DNA of 64,000 bases from Dictyostelium discoideum (Eukaryota): NCBI GenBank assembly GCA_000004695.1, contig CM000150.2, forward strand, positions 1,664,001-1,728,000. The letters run 5' to 3'. The first letter of the stretch is position 1. Each line of letters opens with the position of its first letter. Shown here piece after piece: positions 22,235-28,745 of the stretch. Made by a program: the position numbers and the translations under genes. Below the pieces are notes generated by a model. That model did no database searches. It was not told the origin of the DNA and was given only the letters and a program-made list of their open reading frames with translations.

Positions 22235-22317
22235 CCGGCTTTGGCGCAATGGTAGCGCGATTGACTGTAGTATTGAAAGTGATCAATCGGTTGCTAGTTC
22301 GAATCTGGCAAGCCGGA
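22235..22317 (+). tRNA. tRNA-Tyr (anticodon GUA) with an 11-nt intron 3' of position 37
   Basis: Cloverleaf: acceptor CCGGCTT/AAGCCGG, D-arm GCGC-AATGGTA-GCGC, anticodon stem ATTGA/TCAAT, loop CTGTAG[intron TATTGAAAGTG]A, variable CGGTT, T-arm GCTAG-TTCGAAT-CTGGC, discriminator A. A T-run follows. Eukaryotic tRNA-Tyr genes universally carry an intron at this position. Confidence 0.85.
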
Positions 22318-22324
22318 CTTTTTA
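22318..22324 (+). terminator. Pol III terminator T-run after tRNA-Tyr
   Basis: cttttta directly after the discriminator base. Confidence 0.5.
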
Positions 22325-22757: not shown

Positions 22758-23651
22758 ATGTCAATTTTAATTACTGGTAGTACTGGCAAATTTGGTAAAA
22801 ATTCAATAGAATTTTTATTATCAAATGGTGTTGATCCAAAATCAATAATTGCATTGGTTCGTGACGAATCAAAAGGTAAACAATTCCAAGATAAAGGTTT
22901 AAATTTTAGAATTGGTGATTATTCAAATGAAGAATCTTTAGTTAAGGAATTTGATGGTATTGAAAAATTATTATTCATTTCATCAAGTGATATTGAGAAT
23001 AGAATTGATCATCATAATAATGTAATTAAAGCTGCCAAACAAGTAGGTTCAATTAAACACTTGGTTTACACAAGTTTCTTAAGAAAAGAAGAGGTTGAAA
23101 AAAGTGGAAATTCTTCAATTGATTTTGTTGGAAAACCACATATTTTTGCTGAAGAATTGATTGAAAAATCTGGTATCAACTACACAATTCTTCAAAATAT
23201 TCTTTACACTGATTTCTTAACCGAATTCTTTTTTGGTGAAAAGGTTTTAGAAAATGGTATTTTTTTCCCAGCAGGTAATGGTATTGGTAACTATGCAACT
23301 AGAAAGGATATGGCTGAAGCTGCAGTAAATATATTATTGGATGAAAATCAACAAAATCACCTCAATAAAAAGTATATCATTTCAAATGAAGAAAGTTCAT
23401 CATTTGAAGATGCTGCTAAAATTCTCTCTGAAATCAGTGGTAAAACTATTTCATACACAAGTCCAGATGTTGCAACATTTGAAAACACTTTAACTGGATT
23501 TGGTGTCCCTCAAGTTTATATTCAGCTATCAGTTGCATTTGGTTTGGCCATTCAAAATAATGAGTTTAATATCCTTAAAACTGATCTTTCAACATTGTTA
23601 AAAAGAAAACCAACTACCTTAAAACAATTTTTATTTGATACCTATCAATAA
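22758..23651 (+). CDS. NmrA-like / atypical SDR NAD(P)-binding protein (297 aa, single exon)
   Basis: N-terminal Rossmann motif ILITGSTGKFG, ALVRDESKG, and the overall NmrA/YtfG-like layout. Confidence 0.7.
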   Translation: MSILITGSTGKFGKNSIEFLLSNGVDPKSIIALVRDESKGKQFQDKGLNFRIGDYSNEESLVKEFDGIEKLLFISSSDIENRIDHHNNVIKAAKQVGSIKHLVYTSFLRKEEVEKSGNSSIDFVGKPHIFAEELIEKSGINYTILQNILYTDFLTEFFFGEKVLENGIFFPAGNGIGNYATRKDMAEAAVNILLDENQQNHLNKKYIISNEESSSFEDAAKILSEISGKTISYTSPDVATFENTLTGFGVPQVYIQLSVAFGLAIQNNEFNILKTDLSTLLKRKPTTLKQFLFDTYQ

Positions 23652-24221: not shown

Positions 24222-24293
24222 GGCTCCTTAGCATAGTGGTATTGCGCTTCCCTAGTAAGGAAGAGGTCATGAGTTCGATCCTCATAGGAGCCT
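24222..24293 (+). tRNA. tRNA-Thr (anticodon AGU)
   Basis: Acceptor GGCTCCT/AGGAGCC, D-arm GCAT-AGTGGTA-TTGC, anticodon stem CTTCC/GGAAG with loop CTAGTAA, variable AGGTC, T-arm ATGAG-TTCGATC-CTCAT, discriminator T, then TTTTTTTT. Confidence 0.85.
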
Positions 24294-24320: not shown

Positions 24321-24332
24321 GGGTTCGAATCT
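24321..24332 (+). promoter_or_regulatory. External B-box (GGGTTCGAATCT) ~28 bp downstream of tRNA-Thr
   Basis: Near-perfect copy of the B-box consensus outside the tRNA body. Confidence 0.55.
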
Positions 24333-24399
24333 TGATTGGAAATGAATTAGTTATCATTGTACAGAAAAAAGAAATAAACGAGAATTTATACATATAATA

Positions 24400-27300
24400 A
24401 ATAAATCACTGTTATATCTTCACCGCCACATTCATTCCTCTTAATTTTACCCTTTTTTTGCTCAATAAAGCAAGGGCTATCGTCTTCTATACTTTTCAAC
24501 AATGGCTGGTGATCACTCAACTGAATTACAGTTAAATCATACAGATAACATCACAACCAATACAAATAATACCTCCACAACCTCAACAACAAAAAACAAA
24601 AGTGCAAAAATCGACACACCTGAAAAACAAACCCCAACAAACCAACTCTCACTAAACAAAGGACTTGATAATCAATTAGATATCATTGCACCTCCATCAA
24701 TCACAAGACCACTCTCTTTCTTAGAAAAAAACAATAACACCATCAACATTAAGTGTTACTTTAATCAACCACACATCCTTGAAGAATTAACCTCTAAAGA
24801 TGACACAAGAATCCAACAAATTCACAAAAACATTCACAAACTCTTCGAAGATATACTGTCGCCATCAGCATTTAAAATAATTGGTGCAACTGCCTTCGTA
24901 AATTGCAACGTTGATAAATTAACTTCAATAATCAACCTTCAAAACCAACTTGCACTAAATATAGACAAACTCAATAATGAAATTTCACACAAAAGTGATT
25001 CTTCAAATAATAATAACGGGAAAAACTCATTATCAATGAGCAATCCAACCGATCCAACAATTGTACCACAAAAACCTCTACAATCCCAACCAAACAAACC
25101 AAGTGCACCAACTCCAAATACAATAAATACAAGAAGAAGCAGCAATGCCCTGACTACACAACCAGTCAATACTGGTGCTGCCAAACCTAGTAAGGTATGA
25201 GCTCAAAAATCAACTTTATAACATGGAATTGTAGAGGATTCACTGAAAACCCAAACAATCAACACAATTCCTACCAAAAAGCTGTTGACACACTACAACT
25301 ACTTATATCAAAACTTCCACCTCGTCCAACAATCTCAATACTCACTGAACTCAATTCATCACCATTACAACTTAAACATTATTTTCCCGATCACATCATC
25401 TCTGTCACCAAACGAGGAAATGGTGTAATCATCATTAACCATAACCCAAACACACTCAAACTCAAACACATATCAACAATTGATATTACCAATCAATCCC
25501 AAAACAATAAAGAAATTTCACACAAAAGTGATTCTTCAAATAATAATAACGGGAAAAACTCATTATCAATGAGCAATCCAACCATGGTAGAGCTATTTTA
25601 GCAGACGTTATATTTCCAAATCAATTACCAATTGGTATTCTTGGAATTTACGCACCAGCATCAAATAATACCATCAAAAAGAATTCATATGCAACTTCAC
25701 TACAAACACTTCTCCACAACCACTCAACAAACCCAATACCAAACCAATCCCAACATGTATCTATTATCGCAGGAGATTTCAACTCTATCCACAACGACAA
25801 TTCACTATAAGATGATATTATCCAATCCTACACATACCAACACCATTTAATTGATCAAGGTGAATTTAAAAACACTCCAACTCATACACATGGCAACAGA
25901 TTAGATAGAATATATACTCAATACAATAGAATAGACCCTGAAAATATATATACACAAGTCCACCAAATTCCATCTTCATTATCAGATCATAATCCAACCA
26001 TGAAGCAATCAATATTATCAATCATTTAATAACTAATCACAATAACACATCAATCAATCAATTTACAAACTGGTCAAAAGTAAAATCAAAAATTATTAAA
26101 ACTCTAAAAAACTATCAATATAACAAAGACAAACAAACTCAACGTTCAAAACAAATACTATTAGGAAAAGCAGCAAAATTCAAACATCTTGAAGAACAAT
26201 GCATCGCTGAATACAATATTATATGTAACAAAAACAAATTACATCAAAACCACACAAACATATTAAAAAAACATATAAATGGAGAAATACCTTGCAAGTA
26301 TCTATCAGCAATACTAAACAAAAGATCAAAACATGCAAAAATTGAATCAATCCAATATGGTAACATCATTACATCCGACCCCGACCAAATTGAAAATGCG
26401 TTTGTTGAATTCTACACAAATCTATATAGCTTACAAATATGTTGTCCAATTACTCACCAGCTCATGCCAAACACATGGCCCATCATAAAAAATGAATATT
26501 TGAATGGTTTAGACTCACCATTTATACAAGATGAAGTTGAAGCTGCAATTAAAACCTGTAACCCCAACGAATCACCCGGTCCAGATGGCGTTACAAATGC
26601 TTTCTACTTTAATCATTTAAACCAAGTTAAACCAATTCTCACTACATTATTCTACGATATACTAGAAAATCCTCACCACATCACAACAGAATTCACCGAA
26701 GGTCTTATACACACAATATACAAGAAAGGCAACCCCTTACTCATATCAAATCGTCGTCCCATTACACTTCTAAACACTGATTACAAGATCCTCTCAAAAG
26801 TAATCAATGCACGTCTTCTGAGAATACTTCCTTTCATCATCAACAACAACCAAACTGGTTTCGTACCCCACAGATTCATCATAGACAACATCATCAACAT
26901 CAATGAATAAATCAACTACCTCAAATCTAAAAACCTCCCTGGTATAATCACACTATTTGACTTCTTTAAAGCATTTGATTCTATCTCTCACCTTGTTTTA
27001 ATACTATCAAAAGAACATTAATTCATATTGGTATACCAATAAAATTAATAAATTTAATCCACAAGCTATTATTTGATTCACAAGCAAAAATTTCAATTAA
27101 TGGTAAAACCACCAGAAAATTCGATATTAAAAGAGGTGTAAAACAAGGTGACCCAATCTCAGCCACTTTATTTGTAATTGTAATTGAAATATTAGCAAGA
27201 ACAATAAATGCAGACAATACAATAATTGGATTACCAATTTCATCCAATCCACAAATTAAAATCAAATTTACCCAATTTGCAGACGAATCTACAACATACA

Positions 27301-28745
27301 ACATCAACTACGAACAACAACAATCAATCAAACATTTCGATAATTTATGTGCTAAAACATCATCATCATTAAATTTTGACAAAAGTGCAATAATAGAAAT
27401 CAACCCCCACAAAATCACTGATAAACACATAATAAACAACGTTCCACAATCAAAAAGAATACCAATAACCAAAAAAGATTAATCAGAAAGAGTCCTAGGC
27501 TATTTCTTTAATAATAATGGTTTACATAGGAAATTACCAGAAACAATGAAAACACTGAATAAATCATTAGTACTATGGAAAACTAGTGGCACACCAATAA
27601 CATATTTATCATACCTTGAAGAATTTACAAAAGATGAAGAAATTCAAATTAATAAATTAATCTCATGGTTTATGAATTCCGCAAATTCTGAATCACCAAC
27701 TCTCAATACCAATTCCATTGAAAACAACACATCAACCATCCATTCACGTGCAAAATTACCTTTGATGTGTTATGATAGATCATTAAAACCATTAAAAGAA
27801 GGTGGTTGGGGTATGTGGAATATACAATTACGAAAAGTTGCTCAAAAGAATTGGATATACAACAGATTTTTACAAATGCATATATCTGCAAACAATTCAA
27901 TATACATGATAAGTTGGATGGATCAAATCATCAACAAATCAATCTCTTCTCCATACCTTATAAAAATTAAAAAAGAATGGGAAAACTATGCAACTCAAAT
28001 TGGACATCTAAAAGATAAAGTTAAAATCCTACAACCAATATTAATAAAAAATCAAACCTCTCAAACATTAACCACAAATAATATTCCACTACCACCAACA
28101 CTCAAAGAAATCTACTCGACAATACTCAACAATCACCAATGTAAATCAAAAGACTATATTGGCAAGAAATATTCAGATCTACTTCTTACTTCGCACCAAC
28201 AATTAATACAACTATTATGGAAATACACATACGACCAACTATTTGTCAAAATTCAAAAATTAAAAGATCCAAAAGGCCGTGATACAATGCAAAGATTCCA
28301 TGCTAGATGTCTTCCGATTAATCACCTACACAACAAAGTTTGCCCCATTTGCAACAATGAAATGAATAATGATCCCTATGGTCATTTGTTTTTCAATTGT
28401 CAGCACACAATCAACTTCATAAACCACGACAAATTAAAATATTTTATATATAAAAATTGCAATGGAAACAAAAACTGGTCACTAACAAAAAACCAAACAA
28501 CAAAATTATACACTCATTTATAAACCACAAACAAACAACAAAGCATTTAAACCAGATCCAACTATCATGAATGGGGGGAGGAGACAGGGGACAGGGGACA
28601 GGGGACAGGGGGGGAGATTTGAAGTTTTTTTTTAAATTTTTTAGTCAGTTGCAAATACAAATACATTGGCATATAATAAATAAAACTATTGATTGGAGTG
28701 AAATAAATAATCCAATAAATAAAAGAGAAAAAAAAAAAAATTCCG
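24400..28745 (+). mobile_element. TRE3-like tRNA-gene-targeted non-LTR (LINE) retrotransposon, inserted ~100-200 bp downstream of tRNA-Thr; degenerate copy. Boundaries are approximate.
   Basis: ORF1 24502..25200 (T/N/P-rich, 232 aa). ORF2 starts at 25197 overlapping ORF1 with the APE N-terminus MSSKINFITWNCRGF. The APE C-terminal half is in another frame (IIAGDFNS ... RLDRIY ... SDHNP, ~25590-26040). RT motifs are split over frames: 26464..26910 has PGPDGV ... YKKGNPLLISNRRPITLLNTDYKILSKVINARL, ~26950 has FDFFKAFDSISH, and ~27100-27190 has RGVKQGDPISATLF. The C-terminal CCHC zinc knuckle is CPICNNEMNNDPYGHLFFNCQH (27546..28523). Multiple frameshifts and stops interrupt ORF2. There is an A-run near 28726. 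Confidence 0.65.

Follow-up and report, generated by a model that had tools for sequence, protein, structure and literature searches.

The 64,000-nucleotide (nt) window analysed here, positions 1,664,001 to 1,728,000 of the forward strand of contig CM000150.2 (Dictyostelium discoideum, assembly GCA_000004695.1), contains at 28573-28616 (+) a G-rich run of 44 nt that bridges the broken 3' end of a TRE3-family retrotransposon to the flanking DNA, beginning 5 nt past the breakpoint of the element. The run is specific to this copy: it sits at the truncation junction, is absent from the orthologous loci and from those TRE3 3' ends that can be read, and is strongly prone to form a G-quadruplex (G4). 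Its make-up resembles that of D. discoideum telomere DNA, with G-runs of 1-8 separated by A, plus ACA. On balance, we favor the interpretation that it is a single-copy telomere-type junction scar, lengthened by slippage, and not a functional component of TRE3. As a G4 motif, the run is already known and has been catalogued as exceptional (PMC6511855); new relative to that catalogue is its genomic context, i.e. the breakpoint of a truncated TRE3 and the likeness to the start of a telomere tract.

An exceptional quadruplex motif in an AT-rich window

The run reads GGGGGGAGGAGACAGGGGACAGGGGACAGGGGACAGGGGGGGAG, letter for letter as quoted in a preliminary description made from the sequence of the window, and can be broken down into G6 A GG A G ACA (GGGGACA)x3 G7 A G. 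Five tracts of at least four G are present (G6 at 28573-78, G4 at 28587-90, 28594-97 and 28601-04, and G7 at 28608-14), in line with the minimum of five that had been claimed. The spacing of 3 nt given in the same description applies to the last four tracts, which are separated by ACA loops, but not to the first, which is followed by the 8-nt AGGAGACA. Positions 28587-28607 consist of three perfect GGGGACA units, and Tandem Repeats Finder reported a period of 7 with 4.7 copies and 96% matches over 28579-28611. A search of the window for GGGGACAGGGGACA with at most two mismatches gave three matches, all within the run, compared to an expectation of 0.01 from 100 shuffles, none of which reached three matches.

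As criteria for a canonical G4, we used at least four G-tracts of at least three G with loops of 1-7 nt, and a G4Hunter score above 1.5-2. Positions 28587-28614 have this layout of tracts and loops and score above the threshold, with G4Hunter values of 2.61 for this 28-nt core and 2.32 for the whole 44-nt run. In a window with a GC content of 21.8%, the run is both the G4Hunter peak (25-nt maximum of 2.44) and the single occurrence of the G3+N1-7 x4 motif on either strand, and the motif deserves its earlier label of strong and canonical. No canonical G4 motif was found in about 121 kb of other Dictyostelium loci that we fetched, except at the same locus in a second assembly. When folded with ViennaRNA using G-quadruplex energies, the run was predicted to form a four-tetrad G4 with ACA loops (minimum free energy of -45.1 kcal/mol versus -14.2 kcal/mol without G4). 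The sequence is very probably capable of folding into a four-tetrad quadruplex; we have no indication that TRE3 or the cell makes use of such a structure. A scan of the surroundings of the run against Rfam gave no match other than transfer RNAs (tRNAs).

The rarity of such G-rich islands, which had likewise been proposed from the sequence, is borne out by a published genome-wide list. Table S1a of Saad et al. 2019 (PMC6511855) contains 23 "very G-rich" sequences of strain AX4 with multiple runs of at least four G; its row 2 is the 28-nt core verbatim (chr1 [1692587, 1692614] +), and this locus is the only (GGGGACA)n row. The same study found G4s to be enriched in promoters and a G4 ligand to affect some genes, and tested 14 oligonucleotides biophysically, a set to which the window sequence does not belong. 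One of its sequences, 19wt (p10/19wt, GGGGGAGGGGTACAGGGGTACAGGGG), folds with a melting temperature above 90 C in 100 mM KCl (PMC6511855), and a four-quartet crystal structure of 19wt is available (PMC6007418). The window core shares with p10/19wt at least four G4 tracts and short loops containing A and C.

An independent assembly (L003, GCA_054883475.1) contains the same run without any difference, so that it is not an assembly artefact; over 6.4 kb, the two sequences have 0 mismatches and differ only by a change of 43 nt in poly(A) length at 29175-29231. The genes around the run encode proteins of D. discoideum AX4. The variable stretch at 29175-29231 is a pure A57 within a 78-nt tract of 93% A, located upstream of an Erf4-like gene (ATG at 29320).

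The host element is a TRE3 copy that has lost its 3' end

TRE3 elements insert at a distance of 40-150 bp downstream of tRNA genes and share their orientation (PMC5911963). This is the position of the element in the window, with a tRNA-Thr gene ending at 24293 and TRE3 homology starting at 24364-24365, 71 nt away and on the same (+) strand. Target sites of TRE3 lie downstream of the internal or external B box of tRNA genes (PMC5911963), and from its sequence and position GGTTCGAATCT downstream of tRNA-Thr is presumably a functional external (ex) B box. The element has two open reading frames (ORFs) and a reverse transcriptase (RT) domain (Pfam RVT_1), and its ORF2 is 88-93% identical to D. discoideum TRE3-type ORF2 fragments. 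Using blastn, we aligned the window to a TRE3 copy from another assembly (L004, see below) at 94-99% identity over 24365-24974, 24972-25484, 25584-25997, 25997-26518 and 27072-28567. With tblastn, residues 1-1245 of a 1389-amino-acid ORF2 protein (P0013) were covered in the window, with gaps, while its last 144 residues had no match anywhere in the window. The GenBank entry AAC27746.1, which belongs to the same 90% cluster, carries only the label "similar to HC domain of Tdd-3 and DRE". The host element is TRE3, as the preliminary description had supposed.

The copy is dead and 3'-truncated. Deletions, a duplication and frameshifts disrupt its ORF2; compared to L004, about 507 nt and 78 nt are deleted, the latter at 25997. 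A 79-bp direct duplication (24972-25050 and 25505-25583, 98.7% identical) adjoins the larger of these deletions. The window copy retains a segment of the RT region (26519-27071, 553 nt) that is missing from L004.

For the 3' end of the family, we relied on two comparison copies, L001 and the longer reference copy L004, both taken from assembly GCA_054883475.1. L004 lies downstream of a tRNA-Phe gene, also at a distance of 71 nt, and is flanked by a 12-bp duplication (TCTAATTGGTAA). L001 comprises two TRE3 copies arranged head to tail downstream of a tRNA-Val gene; the first (5582-7221) is 5'-truncated and ends in A14, and the 5' end of the second follows after about 25 nt, from 7245 onward.

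The stretch that had been read as a 3' untranslated region (UTR) in the window is coding sequence in both comparison copies. Their ORF2 continues (...KLYTLIYKPQTNNKAFKPDPTININFHFAENAQ...) to ...PPINY, 144 codons past the window breakpoint, and is followed by a 110-nt AT-rich UTR and by oligo(A), A19 in L004 and A14 in L001. Among ORF2 protein fragments of AX4 and other assemblies, at least 11 extend across the breakpoint (...KAFKPDPTI/NINFHFAENAQ..., with the slash at the breakpoint), and a soil-metagenome relative with 40% identity (P0007) has kept the C-terminal domain; no G-run was present in the 94 nt examined after its stop codon. In the window, the stop codon at 28521-28523 was created by a 2-nt deletion near 28510. 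Because this stop is the product of a frameshift and the comparison copies are coding there, the G-run does not lie in a TRE3 3' UTR.

TRE3 homology in the window ends at 28567 (...AACTATCA), where the alignments with L001 and L004 both break. Thus, 544 nt (144 ORF2 codons and the 110-nt UTR) plus the oligo(A) have been lost, and the junction reads ...AACTATCA/TGAATGGGGGG; the flank adjoins the G-run without the A-run that is typical of TRE3. Neither L001 nor L004 contains a canonical G4 motif, direct reading of both 3' ends revealed no G-run, and GGGGACAGGGG had no match in L001. The description of the run as lying at the 3' end of the retroelement is therefore accurate for the 3' boundary of this copy but not for the 3' UTR or a terminal repeat of the family, and the comparison with other copies that the description itself had proposed marks the run as copy-specific. 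An apparent residue of TRE3 homology beyond the run (TAGTCAG...ATTGG) was rejected, with 66 of 500 shuffles scoring as well and poly(A) as its best match.

The run is absent from orthologous loci

We reached orthologous loci via cluster members of the downstream Erf4-like protein. Two of them (L007 and L008) are labelled D. discoideum but are about 10% diverged, and the third (L009) is from D. cf. discoideum. The upstream NmrA-like gene was also tried as a route and led to non-syntenic paralogous loci (L005 and L006). In all three orthologous loci, tRNA-Thr, the ex B box, the right flank and the downstream genes are kept, while TRE3 and the G-rich run are absent, as seen from blastn synteny and from reading the junctions. 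The run is thus missing from the orthologous position and bordered on its left by the TRE3 truncation, a combination expected of a short interstitial telomeric sequence left by break repair.

Homology to the right flank resumes at the last base of the run (28616), at GATTTGAAG, which served as the anchor for setting the junction by eye in the alignment. The AX4 junction reads ...GGGGGGGA GATTTGAAG...TCAGTTGC; in L007 and L008 it reads ...AAAAAAAAA GATTTGAAG...CTCAGTGG, and in L009 ...A19 GATTTAGAG...TCAGTTGCC. At the position of the G-run, the orthologous loci have A9 (L007 and L008) or A19 (L009), and these A-runs are the A-tails of other, unrelated inserts (L007 and L008, about 125-135 nt; L009, about 345 nt). 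Compared with one another and with TRE3 3' ends, the inserts showed no significant similarity.

A clean target-site duplication was looked for at the window TRE3, and none was found. One candidate pair, TTGATTGGAaTGAA at 24332 and TTGATTGGAgTGAA at 28689, was dropped because the copy at 28689 is ordinary flanking sequence with orthologues in L009 and L007.

Three unrelated inserts occur in three lineages between the same two flanks, all ending at the same nucleotide before GATTTGAAG (window 24340-24364 and 28616; L007 8205-8345; L008 8201-8352; L009 7976-8325), which looks like a reused insertion or nick site downstream of tRNA-Thr. In L009, the insert includes a full-length match to the U6 small nuclear RNA (8024-8129; Rfam RF00026, 57.2 bits), located downstream of tRNA-Thr at a distance of about 95 nt. 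About 175 nt separate this match from A19, and GATTTGGAAATTTTAT and GATTTAGAGAATTTAT (13/16 identical) border the entire arrangement, which is absent from AX4, L007 and L008. The match may represent either a U6 gene or a retrocopy containing U6.

The run resembles the start of a telomere tract

In D. discoideum, telomeres consist of the repeat A(G)n, where n is 1-8, on the 3' strand of the ribosomal DNA (rDNA) palindrome, the terminal region of which also forms the chromosome ends (PMC6759168). All eight G-run lengths in the window run (6, 2, 1, 4, 4, 4, 7 and 1) fall inside this range, and the run resembles the first approximately 25 nt of the palindrome's telomere tract. The AX4 rDNA end is given as ...CCTAGGTATATGA G8 AGACA G7 AGA G8 A G6 A G6... 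(S1 Table of PMC6759168), and the window reads ...CTATCATGAAT G6 A GG AGACA (GGGGACA)x3 G7 AGA TTTG. Without any adjustment, the two have a 14-nt exact match (GACAGGGGGGGAGA). After removal of the three GGGGACA units, the window run with its left junction becomes ATGAAT G6 A GG AGACA G7 AGA and matches the rDNA end over 17 nt (GGAGACAGGGGGGGAGA). ATGA stands upstream of the G tract in both. C residues in the window run occur only in the context (G)ACAG, as does the single C of the rDNA tract (AGACAG), where ACA is found only at the very start.

A second relative is the oligonucleotide p193 (chr3:4732632-4732674; PMC6511855), which reads AGGGGATGGTTAGCGGTG CGACA GGGGGGAGGAGACAGGGGGA. It has the 18-mer GGGGGGAGGAGACAGGGG in common with the window run (P about 0.005 in shuffles preserving G-run and spacer tokens), and its first 18 nt, AGGGGATGGTTAGCGGTG, match the A repeat of the rDNA end by eye. 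A metagenome scan for the 18-mer gave 65 matches, all on contigs of at least 38% GC with unrelated flanks and none of them dictyostelid. p193 and p40 (chr4:1122650-1122683), both of which contain GAGACAGGGGGA and were treated as promoter G4s in the original paper (PMC6511855), may themselves be tracts derived from telomeres or rDNA ends.

The window tract also differs from telomere DNA: it is interstitial, only 44 nt long and contains the ACA spacer four times, and it has no adjacent rDNA A or B repeats, unlike the telomere tract that terminates the rDNA palindrome (PMC6759168). In the literature that we searched, no description of interstitial telomere-like tracts in Dictyostelium was found.

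Origin of the run

We propose that the tract would have been synthesized or copied when TRE3 lost its 3' end or when this end was not made in the first place. A telomerase-type activity would have extended the broken + strand end, or a polymerase or RT would have copied the proximal part of a telomere tract, for which one of the approximately 100 rDNA palindromes per nucleus, a chromosome end or an RNA of such a tract could have served as the template. The junction microhomologies (ATGA on the left and GA on the right) fit synthesis or copying at a broken end. The extended end would then have been joined at the nick beside the A-run of the target, and slippage on the ACAGGGG unit would have added the three GGGGACA units that turn the tract into a perfect four-tract G4 motif.

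Several observations weigh against this proposal. Four of the seven spacers are ACA, which is missing from regular A(G)n telomere DNA, and three are A. The match to the rDNA tract on its own has a P of about 0.4-0.6 when the shuffles preserve the tokens (G-runs plus A/ACA spacers), and reaches about 0.008 only against mononucleotide shuffles when a C is required in the match. The locus lies in the interior of a 4.92-Mb chromosome, at 1.69 Mb, and not at its terminus. A common origin with the chromosome 3 locus and the chromosome ends rests on two short published sequences, and the order of events could have been either truncation followed by filling or retrotransposition of an already G-tailed template; the lack of a clean target-site duplication, reported above, belongs here as well. 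Since the 18-mer shared with p193 is significant but the rDNA match alone is not, we regard a telomere-type origin as a well-founded lead and not as a proof.

The strongest competitor is a filler of the junction that is not telomeric, in which G-rich nucleotides, either untemplated or with another G-rich RNA or DNA as the template, were added by the TRE3 RT or a repair polymerase during aberrant integration and then expanded by slippage, so that the likeness to telomeres would be one of composition only. The run lies exactly where a tail would be, its perfect heptamer repeats are typical of slippage, and its resemblance to the rDNA tract lacks significance against the token-preserving null. 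On the other hand, the 18-mer identity with p193, located beside an rDNA-end repeat, is unlikely to arise by chance, and the confinement of C to the (G)ACAG context is the same as for the single C of the rDNA tract. We consider such a filler a serious rival, possible although not probable. Within a telomere-type origin, the copy could also descend from a progenitor TRE3 that had suffered a break in ORF2 and received a telomere as a cap, and whose read-through transcript with its telomere-type G-rich end was inserted at the tRNA gene by target-primed reverse transcription. This scenario would account for the authentic TRE3 position, the complete 5' end, the truncated ORF2, the right boundary that is precise to the nucleotide and the G-rich tail where other lineages have A-tails. 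No progenitor is known, though, nor is there a clean target-site duplication, and TRE3 priming without oligo(A) was not found documented in the literature searched; we think this course of events unlikely.

Functional explanations fare considerably worse. If the run were a G-box or G4 element that regulates the downstream Erf4-like gene and was selected for promoter function, this would be in keeping with the G4 enrichment in promoters and the ligand effects on some genes (PMC6511855), but the run is missing from all three orthologous promoters even though the gene is conserved, and it sits at a transposon breakpoint, which makes this explanation very improbable. Even less credible is a conserved TRE3 3'-UTR or terminal element with a role in reverse-transcription priming or RNA stability, as the preliminary description had suggested. 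In its favor, the run lies at the 3' boundary of the copy, after the first stop codon in frame with the last ORF. However, this stop results from a frameshift, the consensus runs on for 544 nt to an AT-rich UTR and oligo(A), no second (GGGGACA)n locus is listed genome-wide although TRE3 is a multi-copy element, and the dead copy contains several deletions as well as a duplication. Because the motif is copy-specific, we find no support for either role. Finally, a sequencing or assembly artefact can practically be dismissed in light of the agreement with the second assembly, poly(A) length aside, and of the listing of the run from the AX4 reference by an independent group (PMC6511855).

In a more far-reaching version of the telomere-type origin, which we regard as unlikely, telomere tracts would have been started de novo on broken ends three times independently, giving rise to the window run, p193 and the rDNA end. 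Their upstream contexts differ (...CATGAAT, ...GGTGCGACA and ...TATATGA), and all three continue with G6-8 A(GG)AGACA G4-7 A. If this were true, the shared start would be dictated by the telomerase RNA, the template of which would contain roughly 5'-CCCCUGUCUCCUCCCCCC-3', and the locus, at a retrotransposon break, would be an interstitial telomere-healing scar, the first to be described in Dictyostelium. D. discoideum telomerase RNA had not been identified as of PMC6759168.

Comparison with known systems

By its sequence features, the locus most resembles two kinds of product from mammals and LINE-1, break-repair interstitial telomeric tracts and tail-less endonuclease-independent insertions. 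Nergadze, Azzalin and colleagues are said to have described short interstitial telomeric sequences inserted at sites of double-strand-break repair in mammalian genomes. Like the window tract, these are short, missing from the orthologous loci of related lineages and surrounded by unrelated flanks, and are read as a repair scar; in contrast, the window repeat is irregular with an imperfect unit, and one of its sides is a retrotransposon breakpoint. Morrish et al. (2002 and 2007) reportedly observed endonuclease-independent LINE-1 insertions at breaks and at dysfunctional telomeres. Such insertions share with the window TRE3 the 3' truncation, the lack of poly(A) and of a clean target-site duplication and the joining to telomere-type repeats, whereas the window TRE3 differs in its normal tRNA-gene target and complete 5' end. 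In addition, the G-rich strand in the window follows the sense strand, which is opposite to the orientation expected from priming by a telomeric G-overhang as in the LINE-1 case.

Simple-repeat 3' tails are also known from retrotransposons without long terminal repeats (non-LTR), such as the (TAA)n of the I factor and the octamer tails of CR1. The window locus resembles these in having a short tandem repeat at the tail position that plausibly arose by reiterative copying. However, the I factor and CR1 carry their tail in all copies, while the other TRE3 copies, L001 and L004, end in oligo(A), and a repeat tail is thus not shared by the family.

Implications of the run and features of its surroundings

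The tempting idea that the TRE3 3' UTR carries a G-quadruplex is removed by these results, and one of the 23 strongest G4 motifs in a genome used as a low-G4 model has gained a context. As a young, lineage-specific and non-conserved scar at a transposon breakpoint, the motif is a poor candidate for a selected G4 function, and it could serve as a natural neutral control. If a telomere-type origin is true, the locus and its relative on chromosome 3 provide a sequence handle on the start of the telomere tract and on the telomerase RNA template. Moreover, one nick site downstream of tRNA-Thr carries three different inserts across related lineages. The features of the locus are compiled below.

Coordinates of the features around the G-rich run, numbered within the window
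Feature	Position	Strand	Remarks
tRNA-Thr(AGU) gene, retroelement target	24222..24293	+	ARAGORN; Rfam tRNA, 65.5 bits; conserved at L007, L008 and L009
External B-box-like sequence GGTTCGAATCT	24322..24332	+	Read downstream of tRNA-Thr; conserved in L007-L009
Degenerate copy of a TRE3-family non-LTR retrotransposon	24364..28567	+	5' end present; 3'-truncated by 544 nt compared to L004
ORF1 of the window TRE3	24502-25200	+	
Five junction nucleotides, TGAAT	28568..28572	+	Belong neither to the TRE3 consensus nor to the G-run
Core four-tract G4 motif GGGGACAGGGGACAGGGGACAGGGGGGG	28587..28614	+	AX4 chr1:1692587-1692614 in the published catalogue
Pre-existing flanking DNA starting with GATTTGAAG	28616..28760	+	Orthologous to L007, L008 and L009

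Two further genes were noted upstream of tRNA-Thr. The first, at 22235-22318, is a tRNA gene (Rfam, 57.8 bits) for which ARAGORN reports the 4-nt anticodon 'gtag' without assigning an amino acid; it is conserved in L007 and L009 and is probably an intron-containing tRNA. The second, at 22758-23651, is the NmrA-like oxidoreductase gene DDB_G0268206, of which paralogous, non-syntenic copies exist in other strains (L005 and L006). Its closest relatives outside the dictyostelids are bacterial short-chain dehydrogenase/reductase (SDR) oxidoreductases, mostly from Bacteroidota where named, with 43-51% identity over the full length, and from this sequence similarity DDB_G0268206 is possibly the result of an old horizontal transfer.

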